Assembly (NCBI GenBank): GCA_016707885.1
Contig: JADJGU010000006.1
Span: 43,417-107,416 of the forward strand
Reading direction: 5' to 3'
Length of the DNA stretch: 64,000 bases
From: Sphingomonadales bacterium
GTDB lineage: Bacteria > Pseudomonadota > Alphaproteobacteria > Sphingomonadales > Sphingomonadaceae
Below, piece after piece: positions 5,404 to 59,380 of the stretch. The notes beneath the pieces were generated by a model. That model searched no databases. It was not told where the DNA came from and was given only the letters and a program-made list of their open reading frames with translations. The first letter of the stretch is position 1. Each line of letters starts with the position of its first letter. A program made the position numbers and the translations under genes.

Positions 5404-6645
5404 CAGGCCGAACAGGCTGAGCACCGCAATCACCGCGAGATAATAGCCGACATATTCGAGGCCGCGCTCGGAAAGCTTGAGCGCGATATTGGGGGCGAGC
5501 GCCCCGCCCAAAATCCCCGCCGCGTTGAAGCAGATTGACGCGCCCGTATAGCGCACCCGCGCCGGAAACAGCCCCGGCAGCCAGGCACCGAGCGGACCAT
5601 AAACCAGCCCCATCACGAACAGCAGCAGCGAAAGATAAACCCCGGTCAGGAACAAATCGCCGCTGCCCAGCCAAGGCGCAGTTGTGAAGCTGCCGACAAA
5701 CATCGCAGCGCAGCCGACGCCCAGCACGAAGGCTGGCCGCGTCCGGTCCGCCCAATAGCCAGAGACGATGATCCCGGCGGCCATGAACAGGATGGCGACC
5801 AACTGGACGCCAAGGAAATCCTCCCGCACCAAACCCAGCTTGGTGGTGCCATAGCCCAGCGCGAAGGCAGTCGAGAGGTAGAAGATGGCGAAGCAGGCAA
5901 TGGCCGCAAAAGTGCCGCCGAACAGCTGTAAGGGATGCGTGCGCACCACTTCGGCTACGGGAACCTTCGGCGGTGGAGCCTCCTCCAACGCCGCAGCAAA
6001 AGCCGGGGTTTCGGTTAGCTTCAGCCGCACCCACAGTCCGATACCGACCAGCAGCGCGCTAAGCAGGAATGGTATCCGCCAGCCCCATTCGCGGAAATCA
6101 GCGTCGCTGAGCAGCAGGCCCAAAATCAGGAACAAACCATTCGACAGGATGAAGCCCACCGGCGCACCCAGTTGCGGGAACATGCCATAGCGGGCTTTCT
6201 TGCCCTCGGGTGCATTCTCCACCGCAAGCAAAGCCGCCCCGCCCCATTCGCCACCCAGCCCGAAACCTTGCCCAAAGCGCAGAATGCACAGCAGCAGCGG
6301 CGCTATCCAACCAGCAACCGCATAGGTCGGCAGCAACGCGATGCAGAAGGTCGAAATACCCATAATCATCAGCGACCAGACGAGCGTCGCCTTGCGCCCG
6401 ATCCGGTCGCCATAATGGCCAAACACCAGCGCCCCGACCGGCCGCGCAATGAATGCCAAGGCAAAGGTCAGCCAGCTTTGCAGCAACTGCGCCTCGGGGC
6501 TGGAGGTCGGGAAGAAAAGCGGCCCGAAGACCAACGAAGCCGCGGTCGCGAAAATATAGAAGTCGTAAAATTCGACCGCCGTCCCCGCCATCGCCGCGCC
6601 CAAAATGCGCTTATGCGATGCGCCCTGTATAGTCCGCTGTGTCAT
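5368..6645 (-). CDS. MFS transporter, metabolite:H+ symporter (ProP-like) type
   Basis: Polytopic protein with FYDFYIF, GHYGDRIGRK and GGEWGGA motifs typical of MHS-family MFS. Internal ATG at 6645 chosen as the start. Confidence 0.8.
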   Translation of the reverse strand: MTQRTIQGASHKRILGAAMAGTAVEFYDFYIFATAASLVFGPLFFPTSSPEAQLLQSWLTFALAFIARPVGALVFGHYGDRIGRKATLVWSLMIMGISTFCIALLPTYAVAGWIAPLLLCILRFGQGFGLGGEWGGAALLAVENAPEGKKARYGMFPQLGAPVGFILSNGLFLILGLLLSDADFREWGWRIPFLLSALLVGIGLWVRLKLTETPAFAAALEEAPPPKVPVAEVVRTHPLQLFGGTFAAIACFAIFYLSTAFALGYGTTKLGLVREDFLGVQLVAILFMAAGIIVSGYWADRTRPAFVLGVGCAAMFVGSFTTAPWLGSGDLFLTGVYLSLLLFVMGLVYGPLGAWLPGLFPARVRYTGASICFNAAGILGGALAPNIALKLSERGLEYVGYYLAVIAVLSLFGLLLLKSRDEAAV

Positions 6646-6709
6646 GCTGCCCTCGCTGGCATCGTCTGTGCGCAAAGGAAAGCGGAAAAGTGCATTGCCC
6701 CCGTCGCCC

Positions 6710-9019
6710 ATGTTCCCTAATCGTTCGCGCGTGACTCATAACCCGCCTGCCCCGCAATATCCCTGGCTCGAAGGCCTGAACCCGCCGCAGCGCGAGGCTG
6801 TGCTGACCACTGAGGGCCCGGTTCTGGTTCTGGCAGGCGCTGGCACTGGCAAGACCGCTGCCCTCACAGCGCGGCTGGCGCATATCATCGCCGAGCGGCT
6901 GGCATGGCCGTCTGAAATCCTCGCCGTTACCTTCACCAACAAGGCCGCGCGCGAGATGAAGGAACGGATGGGCCGGATGATCGGCGATGCCGTCGAGGGC
7001 ATGCCGTGGCTCGGCACCTTTCACTCGATCGGCGCGAAGATGCTGCGGCGCCATGCCGAACTGCTCGGTCTCAAAAGCAATTTCACCATCATCGATACCG
7101 ATGACCAGCTGCGCCTGCTTAAGCAATTGATCGAGGCTGCCAATCTTGACGAAAAACGCTGGCCCGCCCGCAGCCTCGCTGGCCTCATCGACAAGTGGAA
7201 GAATAAAGGCCTGACTCCGGCAGATCTCGATGCGGGTGAAAGCGCGCTTTACGCCGATGGCAAAGGCCAGGCGATGTATACCGTCTATCAGGCGCGCCTT
7301 CGCGAACTCAACGCCTGCGACTTTGGCGACTTGTTGCTGCATAATCTGACGCTGCTCAAAAACCACCGCGACGTGCTCGCGGAGTATCAGGAGAAGTTCA
7401 AATATATCCTGGTCGACGAATATCAGGATACCAATGCGGTCCAATATCTCTGGCTCCGGCTGCTCGCGCAAAAGCGGAAGAATATCGCCTGTGTCGGCGA
7501 TGACGACCAGTCGATCTACAGCTGGCGCGGTGCGGAGGTGGCCAACATATTGCGCTTTGAAAAGGATTTTCCCGGCGCAAAAATCATCCGGCTGGAACAG
7601 AATTACCGTTCCACCCCGCATATCCTTGCCGCCGCCTCGGGCCTGATTGCGGCCAACAGCGGCCGGTTGGGCAAGACGCTGTGGACCGATCTCGACAGCG
7701 GCGAAAAGGTGCGCATCCTTGGCGTATGGGATGGGCCAGAGGAGGCGCGGCGCATCGGCGACGAGATAGAGGCGCTGCAATATAAAAAGGTCTCGTTGAA
7801 CGATATCGCGATCCTCGTCCGCGCACAGTTCCAGACGCGCGAGTTTGAAGACCGCTTCATCCAGATCGGCCTCAACTACAAGATTATCGGCGGTTTCCGT
7901 TTCTATGAACGCGCCGAAATCCGCGATGCCATCGCCTATCTGCGCGTCATCAACCAGCCCGCCGACGACCTTGCCTTCGAACGCATCGTCAACACGCCGA
8001 AGCGCGGGATTGGCGACAAGGCGGTCGAGAAAATCCACCGCGTCTCGCGTGCAGAGGGCGTGCCGCTCTCGGTCGGCGCGGCGCGCATCATCGGCACCGA
8101 TGAGCTGACCGGCAAGGCGCGCAAATCGCTGTCGGATCTGGTCATAGATATCGCCCGCTGGCGCGACAGCGCCACCACCCTGCCCCCGTCCGCGCTGACC
8201 GAACTGGTGCTGGAGGACAGCGGCTATACCGCGATGCTGCAGGCCGAGCGCAGTGTTGAGGCATCGGGGCGGCTCGAAAACCTCAAGGAACTTGTCCGCG
8301 CGATGGAGGAATATGAAACGCTCGGCGATTTCCTCGAACATGTCAGCCTCGTCATGGATAATGACGCGAACGCACAGGACGAAGCCGTCACCATCATGAC
8401 GATCCATGCCGCCAAGGGGCTGGAATATAATCATGTGTTCTGCGTCGGCTGGGAAGATGGCGTCTTCCCCTCGCAGCGCGCGATGGATGAAGGCGGCCTC
8501 GCCAGCGTCGAGGAAGAACGCCGCCTCGCCTATGTCGCGATCACCCGCGCCCGCGAAAAATGCACCATCACTCATGCCGCAAACCGGCGGATTTACGGCC
8601 AATGGACCAGCAGCATCCCCAGCCGCTTCATCGACGAACTGCCCGAAGAGCATATCGAGAATGAGCAGACGATGACCGGCGGTGCTTCACTGTGGCGCGC
8701 CAACTGGAGCGAACGCGCAGACCCCTTCGCCCACTTGGCGGCCGCCAACGCCACAAGAGCAGGACAGCGTGGGCCGGGCTGGCAGAGGGCGGCGACCAGC
8801 GGCGGGTTTAACCCGGTGCCGTCACGGGTCAGCGAAGCGAACAAGCCCGCTGTGGGATTGGGTGCGCAGGGCCGCACCGACCTCGCCATCGGCATGCGCG
8901 TGTTTCACGAGAAATTCGGTTATGGCGTGATCGAGGATATCGAAGGCAACAAGCTGGAGATTGAATTTGAACAGGCCGGGCGGAAGCGGGTGATGGATAG
9001 TTTTGTGACGGTGGGGTGA
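6710..9019 (+). CDS. uvrD: ATP-dependent DNA helicase II (UvrD/PcrA family)
   Basis: Walker A AGAGTGKT, motifs TFTNKAAREM, VDEYQDTN, QNYRS and VTIMTIHAAKGLE, plus the C-terminal FHEKFGYGVI tail. Start placed at the ATG at 6710. Confidence 0.9.
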   Translation: MFPNRSRVTHNPPAPQYPWLEGLNPPQREAVLTTEGPVLVLAGAGTGKTAALTARLAHIIAERLAWPSEILAVTFTNKAAREMKERMGRMIGDAVEGMPWLGTFHSIGAKMLRRHAELLGLKSNFTIIDTDDQLRLLKQLIEAANLDEKRWPARSLAGLIDKWKNKGLTPADLDAGESALYADGKGQAMYTVYQARLRELNACDFGDLLLHNLTLLKNHRDVLAEYQEKFKYILVDEYQDTNAVQYLWLRLLAQKRKNIACVGDDDQSIYSWRGAEVANILRFEKDFPGAKIIRLEQNYRSTPHILAAASGLIAANSGRLGKTLWTDLDSGEKVRILGVWDGPEEARRIGDEIEALQYKKVSLNDIAILVRAQFQTREFEDRFIQIGLNYKIIGGFRFYERAEIRDAIAYLRVINQPADDLAFERIVNTPKRGIGDKAVEKIHRVSRAEGVPLSVGAARIIGTDELTGKARKSLSDLVIDIARWRDSATTLPPSALTELVLEDSGYTAMLQAERSVEASGRLENLKELVRAMEEYETLGDFLEHVSLVMDNDANAQDEAVTIMTIHAAKGLEYNHVFCVGWEDGVFPSQRAMDEGGLASVEEERRLAYVAITRAREKCTITHAANRRIYGQWTSSIPSRFIDELPEEHIENEQTMTGGASLWRANWSERADPFAHLAAANATRAGQRGPGWQRAATSGGFNPVPSRVSEANKPAVGLGAQGRTDLAIGMRVFHEKFGYGVIEDIEGNKLEIEFEQAGRKRVMDSFVTVG

Positions 9020-30755: not shown

Positions 30756-32417
30756 TCAAATGCCGTTTGCAGCACTCAGTAGCGCACGCACGGTTGCCGT
30801 AGCGACATCGGTATCGATACCTGCGCCAAAAAGACTGCGTCCATCGGCGGTGCGGCATTCGACATAGGCTGCGGCCTGCGCGCCGGCGCCGTGACCAATG
30901 GCATGTTCGCTATAGTCAACGATATCCATTTCCGGTCCGCCATGGTCGGCAAGCGCTGCAATCACGCTAGACATCAGGCCATTGCCGCGCCCGGAAAGGC
31001 TTCGGAACTCCCCGTCCACTTTCAATTTGCCGACAAAAATCCGATCCGTGCCCGAATGGTTTTCAGCATAATCGAACAGTTCGAAACGTCCCGATTTGGT
31101 AATGAAATAGCGGTCCTGAAAAGCACCCCAAATGTCAGCAGAGGTCAGCTCACGACCGGTCGTGTCCGAAAGCTCCTGCACGGTACGCGAGAAATCGGCT
31201 TGCATCTTCTTGGGAAGCTTCAGACCATAATCCTGCTCGAGTACCCAGGCGACGCCACCCTTGCCCGACTGCGAATTGACACGAATGACGGCTTCGTAAC
31301 TGCGTCCGAGGTCGGCAGGATCGATGGGAAGATAGGGTACTTCCCATATCTCGTCATTGCGCTTCGCCTGATGCGCAAATCCCTTTTTGATCGCGTCCTG
31401 ATGACTTCCCGAGAAAGCCGTGAACACCAATTCGCCGGCATAGGGATGGCGCGGATGGACAGGCAGTTGGTTGCAATATTCGACTGTCTGGATGACTTCG
31501 TCGATATCCGAGAAATCGAGGCCGGGATGCAGCCCTTGCGTGTACATGTTCAGCGCAACGGTAACCAGGTCGACATTGCCGGTTCGTTCGCCGTTGCCGA
31601 ACAGGCAGCCTTCGACACGGTCACCACCAGCCAGCAGACCCAGCTCGGTTGCAGCAATACCTGTGCCTCGATCGTTATGCGTATGGAGACTGATAACGAC
31701 GGCCTCACGGTTCGGAATATTGCGCCCAAAATATTCGATCTGGTCAGCATAGATGTTGGGCATTGCCGCTTCGACCGTAGCCGGCAGATTGAAAATGATC
31801 GGCTTTTCAGCCGTCGGCTTCAGGATTTCCATCACCGCGGTGCAAACTTCGAGGCTGAAGTCGAGTTCGGCGGTCGAGAAGGTTTCGGGCGAATATTCAA
31901 AATGCCAATCGGTCTGCGGATATTTCGCTGCCTGTTCGGCCAAGATTTGCGCGCCTTCAATGGCAATGGCTTTCACACCCGGCTTGTCGAGATTGAATAC
32001 GATATTGCGCCAAGCCGGCGAGACTGCGTTGTACAAGTGGACGATCGCTGTCTTGGCACCAGCCATAGCTTCGAACGTCTTTTCAATCAGATCGCGGCGG
32101 GACTGTGTCAGGCTCTGGATCGCCACATCATCCGGGATACGGCCACCATCGACCAGTGCACGGATGAAATCGAAATCGGTTGCCCCCGATGACGGGAAGC
32201 CAACCTCGATTTCCTTGATACCCACCTTAACCAGCAGATCAAAAAAGCGGTTCTTTTTCTCCGCGCCCATTGGGTCGATAAGTGCCTGGTTGCCGTCCCG
32301 AAGGTCGGTAGAAAGCCAACGCGGCGCCTTATCGATGGTTCGGCTGGGCCATTGGCGATCAGGCAAGTCTATTTGCGGAAAAGGTCGATACTTACGCGAA
32401 GGGTCATTGAGCATCAT
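30756..32417 (-). CDS. leuA: 2-isopropylmalate synthase (long LeuA type)
   Basis: [19 protein letters not shown]...[20 protein letters not shown], and a C-terminal regulatory domain. Confidence 0.95.
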
Positions 32418-32526
32418 GGCGATGGGTGCTTCTAAAAGAGCAGGCGATTGGCCTGGTTATGAGATTCCGGGGTTCAAACAGCCCTTAGGCGGGTGGCAAA
32501 GCCTAAGGCCAAGCCCGTACGCGCGC
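32418..32526 (-). promoter_or_regulatory. putative leucine attenuator (alternative hairpins) in the leuA 5' leader
   Basis: The RNA contains three mutually compatible segments: CCCUUAGGC (overlapping the leader stop codon), CCUUAGGC, and GCCUAAGGG. The last can pair with either of the first two (9 bp or 8 bp). The proximal hairpin is followed by CUGUUUG. Confidence 0.45.
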
Positions 32527-32577
32527 CTAAGGGCGCGTAAGTCGTAGAAGCAGGGAAAGATTGAGCGCTGCGTTCAT
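32527..32577 (-). CDS. putative Leu-rich leader peptide MNAALNLSLLLRLTRP
   Basis: My own translation of the minus strand gives atg aac gca gcg ctc aat ctt tcc ctg ctt cta cga ctt acg cgc cct tag. That is 6 Leu in 16 codons, including an LLL run, directly upstream of the hairpins and leuA. Confidence 0.5.
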   Translation of the reverse strand: MNAALNLSLLLRLTRP

Positions 32578-32635
32578 AATGAAGCGCCTTTTTCACACAT
32601 TGTTTCCGACGTCCAGCAAAAAAGCGCCGAAAATT

Positions 32636-33088
32636 TCAACTTGGCTGGGTAAACCGAAACAGAAAGTCAGCGTCGCTATCAAGGCGACGCATGTCAACCG
32701 TTGGTTGAAATGGGTGTCGACGGTCAAATGCATCGACTTCCGGACAATTGCGCAATCCCTTACGCAAAGCTCTCAGAAACTGCATCAATTGCAGCCTGGA
32801 CTCACATTCATCCAAAACGGATATCGCCGCCAACCGCTCCGCCACCATCTGATTATAGGCGGGGTGTGGTCCACGATGCAAAGGAAGGCCAAATGCGGCA
32901 GCCATACGTTCGCGACAAGGCAAGGGCATGCCATTCACTCCAAAATCATCGGGATCAAACCCATAGGCTTTTGATTTTTCGAAGAAAGGCCGAAGCGCGC
33001 CCATGTTACAGACTTTGACTGGAATCAGATGATGGCACTGAAAACCGTTAATCTGGCATCTTGCGCGAACGTCCCTGAATGTCGGCAT
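32636..33088 (-). CDS. stand-alone AHH-type (HNH/EndoVII superfamily) nuclease-domain protein, 150 aa
   Basis: C18-HH-LIP23, N52-GMPLP57 and L70-HRGPHPAYN79 reproduce the [AG]HH[IL]IP ... N-G-x-x-LP ... H-x-G-x-H-x-x-Y layout of AHH toxin nuclease domains. AAGGA lies 7 nt upstream of the ATG. The region is low in GC. Confidence 0.6.
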   Translation of the reverse strand: MPTFRDVRARCQINGFQCHHLIPVKVCNMGALRPFFEKSKAYGFDPDDFGVNGMPLPCRERMAAAFGLPLHRGPHPAYNQMVAERLAAISVLDECESRLQLMQFLRALRKGLRNCPEVDAFDRRHPFQPTVDMRRLDSDADFLFRFTQPS

Positions 33089-33137
33089 GATCTATCCTTC
33101 GACATAGAAGATCAACCTGTGCGTAGTTTGGACTTCG

Positions 33138-33902
33138 TCAGCTTCCAGCCCGAACAATCTCCATTTCGGAGCCTATTCGAGCATGAACCACCCGCGATTC
33201 ATCTGTCAGGGTAAGCACGACCAGTTGTTTTCCGTCCAAATCTGATACCGTTTGGTCGGCGGTCAGTGGGCCATTGGTGGCAATGTCATGAACAAGGCGA
33301 ACAATGCGGCGCAACCAGTCTTGCTCACTCCCCTTGTCGACTTCGCATAGTACTTCCTGACCGGAGAACCATGCCAGTCCCTTTGTTCGAAGCTTGTCTT
33401 TTTCCGGCGACCAGATCAGTTGGGTTGTCGCCAAAACGGGAAATGCCCCACCCTCCGCATAATCGCCGACGGTTTCCGCGAAATATGCAGGATCAACCAG
33501 CAAATTGCCGGGCGTCCAAAACACCCTGTCAGGACCCAAATGCTTGACCAAAAGAGCTGCAAACTTAAGAAATGCTTGCGCAATTTCTGGAAGGTGGTTG
33601 CCACCTGTCACATGGTCAGCAAAGTTCAGGGAAAGGACGTCGCCACTCGCTGTGAGTATAGACGAACATAGAATTGGCTGAGCATCGACGACGTGCTCAG
33701 GGATCTCTGCTTGGCACAAAGCGAACTGCAAGCCATTCCAAACCAGACTATGATCGGATCGGGAAACCGACGGCAACGCACGTGATACTGCGCCATCAGA
33801 ATCAAGCAAGAACTCGTCAATGCCGGCAATCACTTTGGCGGCATTGCAGCTGAATATTAGATATAGCGGGCTTTGCCGTTCCACTATCTGCCCAATCGCC
33901 AC
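33138..33902 (-). CDS. hypothetical protein (254 aa), partner gene of the AHH nuclease
   Basis: Uninterrupted 254-codon frame in roughly 50% GC DNA. GTG start (alternative GTG at 33884) and no ATG near the 5' end. No signal peptide or TM segment. It sits 49 nt upstream of the nuclease gene on the same strand. Confidence 0.5.
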   Translation of the reverse strand: MAIGQIVERQSPLYLIFSCNAAKVIAGIDEFLLDSDGAVSRALPSVSRSDHSLVWNGLQFALCQAEIPEHVVDAQPILCSSILTASGDVLSLNFADHVTGGNHLPEIAQAFLKFAALLVKHLGPDRVFWTPGNLLVDPAYFAETVGDYAEGGAFPVLATTQLIWSPEKDKLRTKGLAWFSGQEVLCEVDKGSEQDWLRRIVRLVHDIATNGPLTADQTVSDLDGKQLVVLTLTDESRVVHARIGSEMEIVRAGS

Positions 33903-33978
33903 AGTTCTTTATTTGTTCTTATTGGCAAACAACCATGGATGCAACCTTGACCGCTTTGTGAAATTGCTCCGAAATGGA

Positions 33979-35907
33979 CTAAATTTCGACCTGACTGCCT
34001 AATTCGACAACACGATTTGATGGGAGCTTGAAAAATTCCATCGCGTTAGCGGCATTACGGAGCATCCAAGCAAAAACCTTTTCACGCCAGATCGCCATCC
34101 CGGGAACTTTTGACGCAATCAACGTTTGTCTCGACAGGAAGAAGCTTGTTTGCATCATGTCGAAGGGCGGGCCGCACAAGTCGACCTTTGCGAGCGCGGC
34201 GGGAACATCGGTTTCTTCCAAAAAGCCGTAACGCAGGATGACCCGATAGAATCCCTCGCTCAGCGGTTTGCAGGTCACCCGCTTGCTTTCTTCGACATAG
34301 GGCATTTCGGCGATATCGACAGTCAGAATGATAACCCGTTCGTGCAAAATACGATTATGCTTGATGTTATGGAGCAGTGCCGAGGGGACGCCCGCGCTGG
34401 TCGATGCCATGAAGATCGCGGTACCCGGAACGCGCTGGGCGCTGCCGCTGGCCGACTTGATGAAAATTTCCATCGGCATCGTGCTTTCAGCCATGCGTTC
34501 ACGCATCAACGCACGACCGCGCGACCAGGTTGTAAGCAAGGTGAAGATGACCAGACCAATGATCAGCGGGAAATATCCGCCCTGTGGTACTTTGAGCAGA
34601 TTGGCGCCCAGATAGGCAATGTCGACGATGAAGAACACCGCGAGGATCGGCAGCGCCTTCCACTTCGGCCATTGCCACAAGGTCAGCAGCACAACCGAGA
34701 TCAGACAGGTGTCGATGAACATCGCACCCGTCACCGCAATACCATAGGCCGCAGCAAGGTTACTCGACGAACGGAAGAAGAGCACGAGTACGATCACCAT
34801 GATCATCAAACCCCAGTTGATTGCCGGGATGTAGATCTGGCCTGCCTCGCTCTCGCTGGTGTGCAGGATGCGCAAGCGCGGCATGAAGCCTAGCTGTATA
34901 GCTTGTTGGGTCAGCGAGAAGGCACCCGAAATCACCGCCTGACTGGCGATAATCGTCGCAAGGATAACGAGGAACACGATCGGCAGCCGCAGCGCATCAG
35001 GTAGCATCAGGAAAAACGGATCCTTGATTGCAGCCTGCGCCTCTGCAGGGGTCATCGACAGGATCATAGCCCCCTGCCCCATATAGTTGAGCATCAAGGC
35101 GGGGAGGACAAACCAAAGCCAAGAGAATTTGATCGGACGTCGCCCGAAGTGTCCCATATCGGCATAGAGCGCCTCTGCACCCGTCACAGCAAGAACGACC
35201 GCACCCAGCGACACAAAGGCCCTGAACCCGTCAACGTAAAAGAAGTTTATCGCGTTCCACGGATTTAGCGTGTGTAGGACGATTTCGGGCATCTTCACCA
35301 GATACATCAGGCCAAGCACGGACAGGGTCAGAAAATACAAGACCATGATTGGACCGAAAAGCGCGCCAACCTTGGCCGTACCGCGAGCCTGTATCGCAAA
35401 CAGCCCTACAAGAATGGCGAGAGCAATCGGCAAAACCCAGCTCTTGAAGCCGGGGTGCACATAGTTGAGCCCTTCAGTTGCCGACAGCACCGACATGGCC
35501 GGTGTAATCATGGAATCGCCATAGAACAGTGCAGTCGCGAAGACGCCAAGCATGATGATCGGCGCGGTCCACTTCTCCCCCTGAGTCTTGCGGCTGATCA
35601 GCGCGAGCAAAGCAAGGCTTCCGCCTTCTCCCTTGTTGTCCGCCTTCATGATGGTGAACACATATTTGAAAGTCACCACCAGCATCATCGACCAGAAAAC
35701 GAGGCTCAGCACGCCCATGACATGCATCGGATCGGGTTCGATCGGATGATGTCCGGCAAAAGTTTCGCGAAATGCGTAAATCGGGCTGGTACCGATATCG
35801 CCAAACACGACACCCACAGCACCCACGCACATCGTTGCAAGCGACGCCTTGCGATGGCCATGTTCTGGCTGAATTTCATCTACACTGGTTTGCTGTGATT
35901 CTGACAT
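33979..35907 (-). CDS. kup: KUP/HAK/KT potassium uptake transporter
   Basis: [14 protein letters not shown] motif, about 12 TM helices, and the cytoplasmic C-terminal domain typical of Kup. Confidence 0.95.
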
Positions 35908-36043: not shown

Positions 36044-36700
36044 TTATTTAATATTATCCGCCTTCTGGGCAGCAACAGCCTGACCCAGCATCGACTCGAG
36101 GCCCTTTACTTGCGACTCAAGCGGAGCCCGCCATTTCGCATTAGGTGTCGCGCGATCCAGCAGCGCCCGCCATTTGACCAAAGTCTCCACCGGCTTACGG
36201 TCAAAAAGAGCGGCCAGCCCCTCGAAATAGTCAGCGGCCGGTTGCTGCGGCGCCAGTGCTTTTGCCTTGCCAAATGCAAGTTTGGCCGGCGGCGTCAGGT
36301 CACCGTCTGCGGCCAGCATCAGCACCAAGCCAAGTGCCGACCATAGATCGGCATTGTCTGGATGCTCCCTGATTCCCGCCTGAATATATCCGGCAGCCGC
36401 CTGATAGTTGCCGTCGCGCGCAAAACCATCCGCTGTAACGAGCCACATTTTGGCAACGCCATAATTCTGGTCCATGTCGGACCGCATCTGGATCAGGGCT
36501 TCGGCAGCCCCTTTTTCCCCATCTACAGTTTTTGCAGGCACCGCCATATAGCCGGGCATGCCCTGCCAACTATATCCAGCCAGCGCCAAGACGATAGCCG
36601 CAAGCACTGGTTGCCAAAGCCGTTTACGCGCAGGAGTGAAGGCGAGAATTCCTCCAACGCTCAATGCCGCAAGTAACGCCATGATTGCCCAGCCAGTCAT
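36044..36700 (-). CDS. ccmI: CcmI-like TPR protein (c-type cytochrome biogenesis)
   Basis: Two N-terminal TM helices plus TPR-like repeats. ATGA overlap with the ccmH stop. It is the last gene of the ccm cluster. Confidence 0.6.
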   Translation of the reverse strand: MTGWAIMALLAALSVGGILAFTPARKRLWQPVLAAIVLALAGYSWQGMPGYMAVPAKTVDGEKGAAEALIQMRSDMDQNYGVAKMWLVTADGFARDGNYQAAAGYIQAGIREHPDNADLWSALGLVLMLAADGDLTPPAKLAFGKAKALAPQQPAADYFEGLAALFDRKPVETLVKWRALLDRATPNAKWRAPLESQVKGLESMLGQAVAAQKADNIK

Positions 36701-37104
36701 GACTTCGATCCTCCAAATCGCTTGCGCGCCAAAAGCATTGCCAACCCCAATAAAAGGAGCGGCATAGCCCACAACAGCAGACCGATGCCTTTCACAGGCG
36801 GTGAGAAGCTGATCCAGTCGCCATAGCGACCTTTCAACCATTGTTCGATTTCGGCATCGCTTTGTCCGGCGCCTACCCGCTCACGCACTTCGTGCCGCAT
36901 GGCCGCTGCAATAGGTGCGTCGCTGTCGTGAATAGACTGACCCTGACATTGGATGCAGCGCAAATTTTCCATGAGCGCGACCGCTCTTTCTTCCTGCGCC
37001 GGGTCTTTCAATTGAACATTCGCCAAAGGTGGCGGCGGGCCTTCCTGTGCTGCCAGCGGAGCATATGCAACCAACAATCCGACCAGAAAAGCTCTACCGA
37101 TCAT
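36697..37104 (-). CDS. ccmH: cytochrome c-type biogenesis protein CcmH
   Basis: LRCIQCQGQSIHDSDAP (the LRCxxCQ motif) and a C-terminal TM helix. Confidence 0.85.
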   Translation of the reverse strand: MIGRAFLVGLLVAYAPLAAQEGPPPPLANVQLKDPAQEERAVALMENLRCIQCQGQSIHDSDAPIAAAMRHEVRERVGAGQSDAEIEQWLKGRYGDWISFSPPVKGIGLLLWAMPLLLLGLAMLLARKRFGGSKS

Positions 37105-57129: not shown

Positions 57130-58542
57130 TTATTTGTCAGCGTATATTCGCACCAGCCGGTGCAGATAATCGCGGCCGTCATAGACCGATTTGACCCGCA
57201 ACCGTTCATTAAGTCCGTGCACGCCGCCGCCATCGGCTTCGTAGAAAATTCCCGGAATGCCATAGGTCGGAATGCCGATCAGTGCGGTCATCGTTGCATC
57301 GGTTGCACCGGTCGACATTGTCGGCACGAGCGGAATTCCTGGAAAAACCTCGCCGGCCAGCTTGATAGCCGGATCAAGAATGCGCTTATCGAGCGGCGGT
57401 GGCACCGCCATCGGGCGGTGCGGCTTGCGCAGGCTTACCTTTACTTGCGGGTTGGCGACGGCCTTCTCGATCGCACTTTGCGCGTCTTCAGTACTCATGC
57501 CTGGTACGATGCGGCAATTGACCACGCCCTTTGCACGTTGCGGAAGTGCATTAGGCGCGTGGCCGGCATCTAACATCGTAGCCACACATGTCGTGCGCAA
57601 GGTGGAATTCAGAACAGGGTCGGCTGAAAGGACTGCGGCCGCCTGTACATTGCCTTCGTCAGCAAGCAGGTCTGCAATCGCCTTTTGCCCGGCAGCGGGT
57701 GCCGTCGGTGCCATCTGCGTCAGAAACGCCCGCGTCGTGTCGTTTAATTGCACAGGAAATCCTAGCCGCTTTACCGCCACAATGGCTTCGGCCAGATCGT
57801 AGATCGCATTGTCGGGACGCGGGACAGAGCTGTGTCCGCCCGGGTTTGTTGCTTCCAGATCGAATATCCGGTTCGCCTTTTCACCGACTTGGATTGCCAG
57901 AAATTGCGGTTTGCCATTCTTGTCGAGCCGACCGCCACCGCCTTCATTCAATGCAAATTCGGCAGACATTGTTTCAGGCATGTTGCGCGCCAGCCATTCT
58001 GCGCCATTCAATGCTTTGCTCGAACTTTCCTCACCACAGGTTGCCGCCAGCTTGATCGTGCGCTTGGGTTTATAACCTTCCTTTTTGAACCGGATCAGGC
58101 TGTCGACCCAGATCGCGGCCTGCACCTTGTCATCGGCAACCCCGCGCGCATAGAAAAACCCGTCCTCCTCGACCAGTGTGAACGGATCGCGCGTCCAGTC
58201 TTCGCGCTTGGCTTCGACAACGTCGATATGCGCCAGCAGCAGCATGGGCTTCAACGTCTTTGACGTTCCCTTATACTCAGCAACCAGACTGCCCTCACGT
58301 TCAAAACCCGGGACAACAATCACCCTGGCTTCGCCTTTGGTGAACCCGGCATCGTGCATGCGCTTGGCCAGTTGATTGGCTGCGATGGTGCAACTTCCAT
58401 TTGAGTAAGCGGTGTTGGTGTTGACCAGTTCGGCATATAGCTCACGGAACGCCGACTGGTCCGGGCGCAACTGCTGCGCCGGGGCCGCGTCGACAACCAT
58501 TGCCATCAAACTGGCCGCCAGCATCCATTTTGAAACGCCCAT
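57130..58542 (-). CDS. M20/M25/M40-family metallopeptidase
   Basis: Signal peptide, with LLLAHIDVV, ARGVADDK, and the EE in ATCGEESSS matching M20 metal-ligand positions. Confidence 0.85.
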   Translation of the reverse strand: MGVSKWMLAASLMAMVVDAAPAQQLRPDQSAFRELYAELVNTNTAYSNGSCTIAANQLAKRMHDAGFTKGEARVIVVPGFEREGSLVAEYKGTSKTLKPMLLLAHIDVVEAKREDWTRDPFTLVEEDGFFYARGVADDKVQAAIWVDSLIRFKKEGYKPKRTIKLAATCGEESSSKALNGAEWLARNMPETMSAEFALNEGGGGRLDKNGKPQFLAIQVGEKANRIFDLEATNPGGHSSVPRPDNAIYDLAEAIVAVKRLGFPVQLNDTTRAFLTQMAPTAPAAGQKAIADLLADEGNVQAAAVLSADPVLNSTLRTTCVATMLDAGHAPNALPQRAKGVVNCRIVPGMSTEDAQSAIEKAVANPQVKVSLRKPHRPMAVPPPLDKRILDPAIKLAGEVFPGIPLVPTMSTGATDATMTALIGIPTYGIPGIFYEADGGGVHGLNERLRVKSVYDGRDYLHRLVRIYADK

Positions 58543-58666: not shown

Positions 58667-58681
58667 GAACATTTGTAGAAC
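58667..58681 (+). promoter_or_regulatory. candidate alphaproteobacterial LexA (SOS) box GAAC-N7-GAAC
   Basis: GAACATTTGTAGAAC lies 5 nt downstream of a TTGACA hexamer (58656..58661) and 34 nt upstream of the ATG at 58715. Confidence 0.45.
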
Positions 58682-59107: not shown

Positions 59108-59380
59108 TTAGTTCACGGCATCCTTGAGTGCCTTGCCAGCCTTGAACTTGGGCTGGTTCGAAGCAGGGATCTTCATCTCTTCACCGGTGCGCGGGTTGCG
59201 ACCGGTCGAAGCCTTGCGCTTGGCGACAGCAAAGGTGCCGAAGCCAACGAGGCGAACTTCACCACCCTTTTTGAGCGCCTTGGTGATGGCGTCAAAGGTA
59301 GCTTCCACTGCCTTGCCTGCATCGGTTTTGCTGAGGCCGCTTGCGTCTGCAACGGCTGCGACGAGATCATTCTTGTTCAT
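59108..59380 (-). CDS. hup: HU-family DNA-binding protein
   Basis: MNKNDLVAAVADASGLSKTDAGKAVEA...RNPRTGEEMKIPASNQPKFKAGKALKDAV. Confidence 0.95.
   Translation of the reverse strand: MNKNDLVAAVADASGLSKTDAGKAVEATFDAITKALKKGGEVRLVGFGTFAVAKRKASTGRNPRTGEEMKIPASNQPKFKAGKALKDAVN

Follow-up and report, generated by a model that had tools for sequence, protein, structure and literature searches.

A stand-alone AHH nuclease and its strictly paired partner at a fixed, hypervariable locus in Sphingomonadales: a candidate DNA-damage-inducible nuclease–inhibitor operon

Results

Two genes between kup and leuA

The window analysed is a 64,000-nucleotide stretch of a Sphingomonadales contig. Between kup and leuA it holds two co-oriented minus-strand genes, 49 nt apart, the first encoding a 254-aa protein (hereafter X) and the second a 150-aa protein (hereafter AHH, for its domain) (Table 1). 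Both open reading frames were confirmed as described in an initial annotation made from the DNA letters, including the non-ATG (GTG) start of X. That annotation also described the segment as lower in GC than its flanks, and it is, with a GC content of 0.517 vs a window mean of 0.569 (sd 0.024); the dip is modest, placing the segment in the lowest 2.7% of same-length windows. GC3 is 0.50-0.52 in X and AHH vs 0.60-0.68 in the flanking genes. The GC3 of X lies below that of its own flanks in 121 of 126 loci, i.e., low GC3 is a family-wide trait.

The neighbours in near-identical loci are ccm genes, kup, leuA, NMO, GNAT, yceI, and ilvC/N/B. No secretion genes were called within about 6 kb on either side of these loci, in agreement with the earlier reading, and none of about 150 loci had linked lysis or secretion genes. 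Across positions 32300-34150, neither Rfam (permissive threshold) nor scans for sigma-70 promoters and terminators gave anything above chance.

Table 1. Features of the X-AHH locus (positions in the window; residue numbers refer to the encoded proteins)
Feature	Positions	Strand	Remarks
kup	33979-35907	-	Conserved upstream flank; Pfam K_trans, E=4.5e-181
Dyad site 1, TCCATTTCGGA (sense strand)	33968-33978		Abuts kup stop codon
Putative LexA (SOS) box, GAACAAATAAAGAAC	33904-33918	-	Alphaproteobacterial type; 1 nt upstream of X GTG
X	33138-33902	-	254 aa, GTG start, acidic (pI 4.9); candidate AHH inhibitor
X residues 173-232, conserved C-terminal core (GL.WFSGQE ... VRLVHDIATNGP)	33207-33386	-	DUF4261-like
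Dyad site 2, TCCGAAATGGA (sense strand)	33160-33170		Inside X 3' end, 32 nt before stop
X-AHH spacer	33089-33137	-	49 nt; GAAGGA Shine-Dalgarno 6 nt upstream of AHH ATG
AHH	32636-33088	-	150 aa, ATG start, basic (pI 8.9); stand-alone HNH/EndoVII-superfamily nuclease
HH dyad, codons 19-20 of AHH	33029-33034	-	
AHH domain proper, residues 14-110	32759-33049	-	Pfam envelope
LPLHRGPH..Y, AHH residues 68-78	32855-32887	-	
Dyad site 3, TCCGTTTTGGA (sense strand)	32811-32821		Inside AHH, about codon 90
Hypervariable block	32418-33978		Limits are kup stop and leuA start
leuA	30756-32417	-	Conserved downstream flank; Pfam HMGL-like, IPMS_D2, LeuA_dimer

The downstream gene encodes an AHH nuclease domain

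AHH matched Pfam PF14412 over residues 14-110 with 49.5 bits (cut-off 22.3; E=4.7e-13), and PF14412 was carried by all 29 homologues. The CHHLIP, NGMPLP, and LHRGPHPAYN motifs on which the initial annotation had based the AHH nuclease layout are all in the translation, and the catalytic set is kept. Among 140 unique relatives, H19 occurs in 136/136, H20 in 134/136, and N52 in 136/137, while H71, H75, and Y78 are each found in 134/134; these residues are under strong purifying selection. Judged by its sequence, the 150-aa protein is a genuine stand-alone AHH nuclease domain with an intact catalytic set. The residue preceding the HH dyad is C in the window protein and R in 116 of the 140 relatives, rather than A or G. 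Because this residue is C or R, unlike in the published motif ([AG]HH, N, H, H, Y; Zhang 2012), the proteins are assigned to a variant RHH/CHH subfamily. An AF2 model of AHH (pLDDT 71) has a hairpin plus a helix around the motifs; Foldseek with this model found no significant match in the PDB, and a sequence-profile search against PDB chains found no meaningful one.

The family consists of stand-alone domains of 140-196 aa. Across about 140 members there was neither a signal peptide nor an N-terminal domain for trafficking, receptor binding, or translocation, so the lack of a trafficking domain first remarked on for the window protein extends to the family. Neither X nor AHH contains a signal-peptide-like or TM-like segment (maximum Kyte-Doolittle 19-mers of 1.42 and 0.68, respectively), as had been stated for X.

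X belongs to an unannotated family with a weak link to SUFU/DUF4261 proteins

X is the founding member of an unannotated family. Clustering at 50% identity divides this family into 634 clusters, with lengths of about 240-280 aa throughout. X had no match in Pfam, NCBIfam, or PADLOC (for Pfam, none at E<=1), PADLOC-DB v2 gave no match at E<=1 for either X or AHH, and no HTH, RHH, or AbrB domain was detected in X by Pfam or NCBIfam. With PADLOC negative and the X family unannotated, the earlier statements that the 254-aa protein has no recognisable family and that the pairing is not a described system both stand.

The alignment of 102 family sequences has two invariant residues in the C-terminal core, G175 and E183. 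Q182, H205, and D206 also belong to the conserved core, and the N-terminal half of X is variable. Sub-threshold matches to DUF4261 (PF14080) occurred in 12 of the 102 (best E=2.4e-4). The match was placed on one member, P0106 (30 other proteins tried individually gave no placement), where it spans residues 177-236, corresponding to X 173-232, with 16.3 bits vs a gathering score of 27. The weak similarity of family members falls exactly on the X stretch TKGLAWFSGQEVLCEV, which the initial annotation had flagged as loosely recalling SUFU/DUF4261-type immunity proteins, although the window protein itself has no DUF4261 match. SUFU (PF05076) had no match in the X family. For the AF2 model of X (pLDDT 84, pTM 0.83), the top Foldseek match in the PDB was 3k5j, a bacterial SUFU-like immunity-type protein, with a probability of 0.99 but an E-value of 0.055 and TM scores of 0.29/0.38 over 117 aligned columns. 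A sequence-profile search of X against PDB chains gave no meaningful match, Foldseek against viral structures gave no significant match, and a deep-profile homologue search found no annotated SUFU/DUF4261 protein among the 120 matches listed. The predicted fold and the profile signal converge, and suggest a weak link between X and SUFU/DUF4261 immunity proteins.

X and AHH are strictly paired at one chromosomal site

Of 121 loci from across Sphingomonadales, about 115 had X and AHH side by side. A search seeded with X found AHH immediately downstream in 54 of 60 species genomes, and one seeded with AHH found X immediately upstream in 60 of 61 loci; X was upstream of AHH in all loci. The intergenic gap (129 loci) had a median of 4 nt and was <=60 nt in 94% of cases, the genes overlapping in 45%. 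X is thus a real, conserved, and strictly co-occurring partner of AHH. Loss is asymmetric. AHH has been cleanly lost, leaving X intact, in six loci that represent at least four independent events, and the orphan X genes that remain are under purifying selection (dN/dS 0.12-0.14). The X-only species are from Allopontixanthobacter, Pontixanthobacter, Alteriqipengyuania, and Pelagerythrobacter. AHH kept without X was not seen in any syntenic locus; one intact AHH of the same subfamily stands alone, without X, in L081. A pattern-limited scan of species genomes found one X locus per genome and no poly-immunity arrays.

The pair always lies beside leuA/NMO order-wide, and is at the kup-leuA junction in every relative sampled. 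The other flank is kup or a recJ/flavodoxin-like arrangement, with recJ next to the pair in most lineages. No homologues of the pair were found on plasmids, phages, or viral contigs, the locus has no tRNA, att, or integrase signature (the nearest tRNA is >=8 kb away), and there are no flanking direct repeats of an insertion. This synteny and the family-wide low GC3 overturn the idea, implied by the initial description, of an acquired low-GC cassette. In recJ-type loci a flavodoxin-like gene lies upstream of X. It is a conserved neighbour of housekeeping type, missing from the window, and was rejected as an obligatory third component.

The locus is hypervariable and its two genes co-diverge

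In close relatives, amino-acid identity is 93-98% for kup and 96-99% for leuA; these flanks are 93-99% identical where X is only 30-43% identical. Relative to the L078 locus, nucleotide identity is 78-90% in kup, 41-63% in the block, and 81-99% from leuA onward. The divergent block has sharp edges among near-identical genomes. Relative to L001, dN is 0.148 for X and 0.056 for AHH vs 0.003-0.029 for four flanking genes, and dN/dS is 0.15-0.20 for X and AHH vs 0.00-0.07 for the flanks, the overall dN/dS being below 1. Synonymous divergence is also greater inside the block than in the flanks. X and AHH diverge together (partial Spearman 0.48 controlling for kup, permutation p=2e-4). One locus, L077, is an intra-cassette mosaic, which may be a metagenome assembly chimera.

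The pair is an ancient resident of one chromosomal site in Sphingomonadales whose alleles diversify very fast, and X-AHH alleles are probably exchanged by recombination in the conserved flanks. Conservation at this locus in relatives had been named beforehand as the mark of a core gene pair; the conservation is there, but because the genes are hypervariable and co-diverging they are not an ordinary core pair.

A putative LexA box precedes X in kup-type loci

The initial annotation missed a LexA-type SOS box directly upstream of X. The alphaproteobacterial LexA consensus is a GTTC-N7-GTTC direct repeat (PMC9578287, PMC3091678), and the putative box upstream of X is a perfect GAAC-N7-GAAC. Of 25 kup-type loci, 22 keep it in sense orientation at a distance of 17-36 nt before the X homology start (binomial p=4e-47), and in 20 of these 22 it is the sole copy. 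By sequence, the locus thus has both the operator motif of the alphaproteobacterial LexA regulon and its conservation at orthologous kup-type loci. Nothing else points as strongly to the use of the module as this putative box. Another LexA-type box in the window lies directly upstream of a UvrD helicase gene. Boxes, exact or with one mismatch, were not enriched in recJ-type loci, and the upstream region of L081 has imperfect boxes only. Because the box is missing in the larger recJ-type clade, SOS control is not universal to the family.

X is also bracketed by a conserved dyad motif, TCC-N5-GGA. Site 1 is at the same position in 17 of 27 kup-type loci (p=5e-16) and site 2 is present in 15 of 27 (p=9e-17); site 2 is retained although the amino acids it encodes differ, and L025 has it in another reading frame. 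Site 3 is lineage-specific, the window sharing it only with L001 and L077. These 11-bp sites are 15-fold enriched in the cassette and missing in the recJ-type clade. Long-range RNA pairing between 13-nt inverted arms (33966-33978 and 33160-33172) was considered and rejected; whole-region duplex energies were uninformative. L006 has the same inverted-arm geometry as the window. Across loci the sites occur in either relative orientation, so RNA pairing is not a conserved feature, and the inverted arms are reinterpreted as a dyad DNA motif.

Discussion

A tentative model for the X-AHH pair

Our tentative reading is that the pair forms a DNA-damage-inducible operon encoding an intracellular AHH-type (His-Me finger) DNase and its SUFU-like inhibitor. 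AHH domains are experimentally established DNase toxins that require the HH dyad, and Imm-SuFu is listed as a Tox-AHH partner. X (acidic and SUFU/DUF4261-like), translated first, would bind and block AHH in the producing cell; because X is made before AHH, the nuclease would be born inhibited. In the kup-type clade, LexA would repress the operon via the GAAC-N7-GAAC operator at the start of X, and DNA damage would lead to expression of the operon. Loss, out-titration, or degradation of X would be needed before AHH attacks DNA inside the cell, which would make the module a toxin-antitoxin, suicide, or defence nuclease set off by damage. In its logic it would resemble SOS-induced toxin-antitoxin pairs and BapE, the SOS-induced endonuclease of Caulobacter. 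X and AHH would change in step so as to stay matched. The initial annotation had likewise seen the look of a toxin-antitoxin or defence module; the partner-first, tight operon fits a toxin/inhibitor pair, and PADLOC recognised no defence system.

Comparison with known systems

The nearest precedent by domain content is Tox-AHH/Imm-SuFu (Zhang et al. 2011, 2012), an example being V2a, a T6SS effector of Agrobacterium, and its immunity protein. Such pairs have the same nuclease domain and, like X-AHH, an adjacent partner gene with a SUFU-like signal, weak in the case of X, and rapid co-diversification of the pair. Unlike those polymorphic toxins, X-AHH is without a linked secretion system and without a trafficking, RHS, or PAAR region at the N-terminus; its partner gene lies upstream rather than downstream; the residue before HH is R or C rather than A or G; and instead of patchy, mobile, multi-copy arrays there is one order-wide chromosomal locus with a LexA-type operator. 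The multidomain toxin and downstream immunity gene by which polymorphic toxins are recognised (Zhang et al. 2012) were both lacking.

Colicins and pyocins of the E2/E7/E9 type also pair an HNH-superfamily DNase with an acidic protein from the same operon, under a LexA/SOS-type operator and with allelic diversification; neutralisation by the acidic partner is known for colicins, and we infer it for X. In contrast to them, X-AHH lacks receptor-binding and translocation domains and a lysis gene, is chromosomal, syntenic, and immunity-first where colicins are plasmid-borne, and has in X a 254-aa protein unrelated to the Im proteins.

The type II toxin-antitoxin systems, including SOS-regulated ones, share with X-AHH an antidote-first bicistronic operon of overlapping or close genes, cytoplasmic products, loss of the toxin before the antidote, and a LexA-type box. 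On the other hand, HNH-fold nucleases are reported to be apparently absent from classical toxin-antitoxin systems, X-AHH is off mobile elements, and orphan X is maintained by selection. Against our reading of the pair, most type II antitoxins have a DNA-binding domain and none is recognisable in X.

The comparison with Caulobacter crescentus BapE, the SOS-induced 'bacterial apoptosis endonuclease', rests on regulatory parallels from the literature. BapE, too, is a stand-alone alphaproteobacterial endonuclease with a GTTC-N7-GTTC LexA box, and its promoter has, besides the LexA box, extra dyad activator (DriD) sites. DriD also controls recJ, and recJ is the neighbour of X-AHH in most Sphingomonadales. 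The DriD site resembles the cassette dyad imperfectly, the spacing differing by one nucleotide. Unlike for X-AHH, an inhibitor partner for BapE is not mentioned in the literature cited.

On the reading proposed here, the X-AHH pair would be a variant, not previously described, of the known toxin-immunity theme. AHH nucleases were so far familiar only as the warheads carried by antibacterial toxins that are secreted or injected, and AHH is such a warhead without a delivery region. If X inhibits AHH and the pair is damage-induced, a nuclease-inhibitor function would be assigned to the unannotated family of about 630 clusters, toxin-antitoxin and programmed-death logic would extend to the HNH/AHH fold, and the fixed-site yet hypervariable locus would be tractable for studying toxin-inhibitor co-evolution and allele exchange. 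A more ambitious version, which we offer as speculation and think somewhat doubtful, is that AHH plus SUFU-like inhibitor modules are, order-wide, a polymorphic-toxin domain domesticated as a damage-triggered suicide or defence nuclease, controlled by LexA and possibly a second, dyad-binding (WYL/DriD-like) regulator, and kept hypervariable by conflict with phages or rivals. They would then form a new toxin-antitoxin or abortive-type class, on a fold so far taken to be missing from toxin-antitoxin systems, and possibly supply the missing inhibitor logic for BapE-like apoptosis.

Alternative explanations

The hypervariability of the locus can also be explained if AHH acts between cells. Sharp-edged hypervariability in near-identical genomes is a classic between-cell conflict signature, here accompanied by the higher synonymous divergence inside the block than in the flanks, and retention of orphan X under purifying selection, as for orphan immunity genes, is more typical of immunity to incoming toxins than of an antitoxin. 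An interbacterial toxin-immunity pair, resembling a bacteriocin or serving kin discrimination, in which SOS-induced AHH would reach neighbours by an unlinked route while X shields the producer and its kin, also accords with what is known of AHH domains, all characterised examples being antibacterial toxins that are delivered and have a cognate immunity protein, and of SUFU-type proteins, which confer immunity in such systems. Nuclease bacteriocins are typically under SOS control, and the LexA-type box upstream of X fits this pattern. The routes that come to mind are lysis, vesicles, or an unlinked secretion system. Delivery is where this explanation falters: about 140 members are without trafficking, receptor-binding, or translocation domains or signal peptides, a protein of 150 aa has no room for import functions, and the roughly 150 loci are without linked lysis or secretion genes. 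The immunity-first order with overlapping genes is also unusual for effector-immunity pairs, and the pattern-limited scan of species genomes gave a single X locus per genome, without poly-immunity arrays. We judge this explanation possible but unlikely.

If AHH is instead taken to be non-toxic, it could be an SOS-regulon DNA-processing nuclease with X as a regulatory or chaperone partner, serving lineage-specific repair, recombination, or DNA scavenging. A fixed chromosomal position beside housekeeping genes order-wide, and beside recJ in most lineages, would suit such a role, as would the LexA-type box, the strong purifying selection on catalytic residues with overall dN/dS below 1, and the lone AHH without X in L081. 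Yet X and AHH evolve far faster than their flanks, unlike repair enzymes, AHH has been lost repeatedly, and the AHH family has no known repair members, which together make this role improbable.

The sharp-edged replacement of alleles at a single locus could also be selfish and homing-like, with AHH cutting rival alleles at or near the dyad sites on entry of foreign DNA of that locus, so that the cassette spreads by gene conversion, and X protecting the resident copy. HNH nucleases include homing enzymes, the enriched dyad sites bracket X, and L077 is a mosaic within the cassette. The idea is nevertheless pure inference and very improbable: the AHH toxins studied so far are sequence-nonspecific, the mosaic boundaries are not at dyad sites, the recJ-type clade has no dyads, and L077 may be an assembly chimera.

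Finally, a recently acquired, mobile, low-GC anti-phage cassette is hardly credible: the GC dip (0.517 vs 0.569) and the resemblance of an unknown-plus-nuclease pair to defence modules are outweighed by occupancy of the same junction in all relatives sampled and a place beside NMO/leuA order-wide, which refutes recent acquisition, as well as by the family-wide low GC3 and by searches that gave no plasmid, phage, viral-contig, or PADLOC match and no tRNA or flanking repeats. A role in defence would come under the damage-inducible DNase-inhibitor reading, and the case cautions against taking low GC plus a nuclease as a sign of recent horizontal acquisition.

The X–AHH gene pair

The two open reading frames, their 49-nt spacing and the kup and leuA genes that Pfam identifies on either side are as the initial annotation described them, and its assignment of the 150-aa product to the AHH-type nucleases is borne out by a PF14412 match of 49.5 bits (cut-off 22.3). 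The 254-aa partner, here called X, had no match in Pfam, NCBIfam or PADLOC. Neither protein has a signal-peptide-like or transmembrane-like segment, in agreement with the earlier reading of X; X is acidic (pI 4.9) and AHH basic (pI 8.9). The block that holds the two genes is also lower in GC than its flanks, as had been noted; the dip is real and modest in size, at 0.517 vs a window mean of 0.569 (sd 0.024), which is in the lowest 2.7% of same-length windows, with GC3 of 0.50-0.52 vs 0.60-0.68 in neighbouring genes.

A word-seeded search found 13 X homologues and an exhaustive profile search 634 clusters at 50% identity, all of about 240-280 aa; homologues reach down to about 25% identity. Among the matches listed, the only name that the sources give to X-family proteins, where they give one, is 'hypothetical protein', and precomputed Pfam domains are absent from all of them. 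The AHH subfamily has a restricted spread much like that of the X family. A survey seeded with X, taking one genome per species, recovered 60 loci, all from Sphingomonadales (genera include Sphingorhabdus, Novosphingobium, Porphyrobacter, Tsuneonella, Pelagerythrobacter, Qipengyuania, Allopontixanthobacter and Altererythrobacter), and AHH was the next gene on the same strand in 54. Conversely, X lay directly upstream of AHH in 60 of the 61 AHH-seeded metagenome loci having enough upstream sequence to be counted. Conserved and paired in this way, both genes are real. The median gap from X to AHH is 4 nt, and 45% of pairs overlap. Across 140 unique AHH sequences, otherwise 30-45% identical, the catalytic set is near-invariant: H19 (136/136), H20 (134/136), N52 (136/137), and H71, H75 and Y78 (134/134 each). 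The residue preceding the HH is R in 116 and C in 17, rather than the canonical A or G.

Coordinates of the X–AHH pair and associated features (window coordinates unless a relative's locus is named)
Feature	Position	Strand	Details
X	33138-33902	-	254 aa; GTG start
AHH	32636-33088	-	150 aa; ATG start; GAAGGA before ATG
LexA-type box, GAAC-N7-GAAC repeat GAACAAATAAAGAAC	33904-33918		perfect; 1 nt upstream of X start
Second GAAC-N7-GAAC box	6712-6726		directly upstream of UvrD-family helicase
UvrD-family helicase ORF	6605-9019	+	
Third LexA-type box, A/T spacer, GAACATTTGTAGAAC	58667-58681		565-nt intergenic region
M20-type peptidase-like ORF	57130-58542	-	
HU-like gene	59108-59380	-	
Dyad	33968-33978		kup stop
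Dyad	33160-33170		near X 3' end
Dyad	32811-32821		inside AHH
TPR protein gene	36044-36841	-	265 aa; downstream of ccmH (CcmI-like position)
Lone AHH	L081 2296-2790		Pfam E=3e-11; intact; catalytic residues present; same AHH subfamily
Dyads in a kup-type locus	L006 4497-4517 and 5299-5319		
AHH patch in a metagenome contig	L077 1594-2043		vs window 32882-33031
Flavodoxin-like gene	L016 2155-2649		recJ-type locus
Flavodoxin-like gene	L010 5185-5676		recJ-type locus

Identity of X and relation to known systems

The AF2 model of X is confident (pLDDT 84, pTM 0.83). Its best PDB match is 3k5j, a Neisseria SUFU-like protein, with a Foldseek probability of 0.99, yet E=0.055 and TM of only 0.29/0.38; the remaining PDB matches are noise. 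Sub-threshold Pfam matches to DUF4261 occur in 12 of 102 X-family members, and no other Pfam family recurs in more than two. One of these matches falls on residues 173-232 of the window's X, the invariant core (G175...Q182-E183 and VRLVHD) that contains the motif flagged in the initial annotation as loosely SUFU/DUF4261-like. That likeness thus gains weak, independent backing from structure and profiles, and does not extend to formal membership; we assign X as SUFU/DUF4261-like with moderate confidence. Members of the SUFU superfamily have an established role as immunity proteins, and Imm-SuFu figures in the literature among the partners of Tox-AHH.

The components are of known kinds, Tox-AHH plus a SUFU-like partner, a pairing already listed for polymorphic toxins. 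X–AHH lacks the features that define polymorphic toxin systems: there is no trafficking region, the partner gene is upstream, and secretion genes are not linked to the pair. It shares some features with type II toxin–antitoxin modules, but not all, and HNH-fold nucleases are reported to be apparently absent from classical toxin–antitoxin systems. No PADLOC system matches X–AHH, in keeping with the initial annotation, which did not recognise the pairing as a described system.

A putative LexA operator upstream of X

A perfect GAAC-N7-GAAC repeat, the alphaproteobacterial LexA operator (PMC9578287, PMC3091678), precedes X; this putative operator is a new finding. Among 25 non-redundant kup-type loci (those of the window's clade, with the pair at the kup/leuA junction), 22 carry the box in a matching orientation, 17-36 nt ahead of the point where X homology starts (p~4e-47), and in 20 of the 22 it is the sole copy in up to 12 kb. 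It is kept although the DNA around it is unalignable. In recJ-type loci, the larger clade with a recJ neighbour, the box is not present. The second box precedes the UvrD-family helicase gene, which diverges from an MFS transporter; its presence would fit a working SOS regulon in the genome. The third box, between the M20-type peptidase-like ORF and the HU-like gene, has no obvious downstream gene and possibly serves a small gene or sRNA.

Rapid divergence and asymmetric loss

In a subclade whose kup genes are 93-98% and leuA genes 96-99% identical, X is only 30-43% and AHH 42-58% identical, as low as against outgroups. Compared with the relative's locus L078, nucleotide identity is 78-90% along kup, falls to 41-63% between the kup stop and a point just short of the leuA start, and is then 81-99%. 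Against another, L001, X has a dN/dS of 0.15 and AHH one of 0.20, vs 0.00-0.07 in the flanks. More diverged allele pairs have higher synonymous divergence in the block than in the flanks, which suggests, on saturated estimates, import of old alleles by recombination, plus fast change in place. Divergence of X and AHH is correlated with kup controlled (partial Spearman 0.48, permutation p=2e-4). This is no ordinary core pair. In L077, kup and X match the window at 100% of nucleotides, and AHH has a patch of about 150 nt (residues 22-62) that is only 78% identical. Either recombination within the gene, at a variable part of the nuclease surface, or a chimeric assembly accounts for the patch. The TPR gene, too, differs unusually strongly between close relatives (47-77% nucleotide identity vs about 85-90% in neighbouring genes).

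AHH has been cleanly deleted in six species genomes (L032, L035, L044, L057, L074, L075), leaving X intact against NMO, and is degraded in two further loci (L069, L022); these losses represent at least four independent events. Orphan X genes of Allopontixanthobacter/Pontixanthobacter (L035, L044, L057) are under purifying selection (dN/dS 0.12-0.14, dS about 1-2), and because X is kept after AHH loss it shows itself useful alone. No syntenic locus has AHH but no X. The only lone AHH, in L081, is in a non-syntenic position (queG/AHH/purQ) with neither an X-like gene nor any ORF of ≥90 aa adjoining it, and only imperfect LexA-like boxes upstream. Such asymmetry is what one would expect to see were AHH harmful in the absence of X.

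The reading we favour, tentatively and at somewhat less than an even chance, is a damage-triggered toxin–antitoxin, suicide or defence module in which X would hold an intracellular AHH in check. LexA would control the operon, the inhibitor X would be made first and the AHH DNase second, and the nuclease would act inside the cell once X is insufficient. The main rival, a bacteriocin-like weapon with unlinked delivery, would fit known AHH biology, the hypervariability of the pair and the selection on orphan X genes; given the gene order and the complete absence of delivery, import and lysis functions, we consider it unlikely, if a serious contender. A non-toxic SOS repair nuclease is hard to square with the evolutionary rate of the pair and the repeated AHH losses, and is improbable. 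Homing-like allele drive is speculative and very improbable.

A resident locus

The initial annotation described the pair as a low-GC cassette, which implies acquisition, and had itself named conservation at this locus in relatives as evidence to the contrary. Such conservation is what we found: all members of the window's clade that were examined have the pair at the kup/leuA junction, including relatives with X only 33-36% identical. In the larger clade the pair is flanked by divergent recJ plus a flavodoxin-like gene, and by NMO...leuA; being next to NMO/leuA in both clades, it has kept that place across the order. No X or AHH homologues were found in plasmids, phages or viral contigs, and no tRNA or insertion repeats near the pair. 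X has a lower GC3 than the genes flanking it in 121 of 126 loci, so that low GC3 is a family-wide property and no transfer scar. Recent mobile acquisition is essentially excluded.

In most recJ-type loci, recJ and X are separated by the conserved flavodoxin/FMN-reductase-like gene (about 163 aa), which is often a few nt from X. The 64-kb window has no homologue of this gene, so the module does not require it.

A second conserved motif

An 11-bp dyad, TCC[AG]N3[CT]GGA, separate from the LexA-type box, recurs at two places in the kup-type loci: it adjoins the kup stop in 17 of 27, and in 15 of 27 it is found 17-41 nt ahead of the X stop (p about 1e-16 for each). It is kept although its orientation and the amino acids it encodes differ, and in one locus the reading frame differs as well. 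The A/T-centred form occurs three times in the window, each time in the cassette, vs 0.44 copies expected in 64 kb, and the cassette has a 15-fold higher density of the dyad than the DNA outside it. In the window, X is bracketed by the first two copies, which make up a perfect 13-nt inverted repeat; the AHH-internal copy belongs to the window's lineage. The dyad loosely resembles the site of the Caulobacter WYL activator DriD, with spacing off by one nucleotide. In Caulobacter, the promoter of the nuclease gene bapE has both a LexA box and DriD sites, and recJ is likewise under DriD control; the resemblance may be taken as a lead only.
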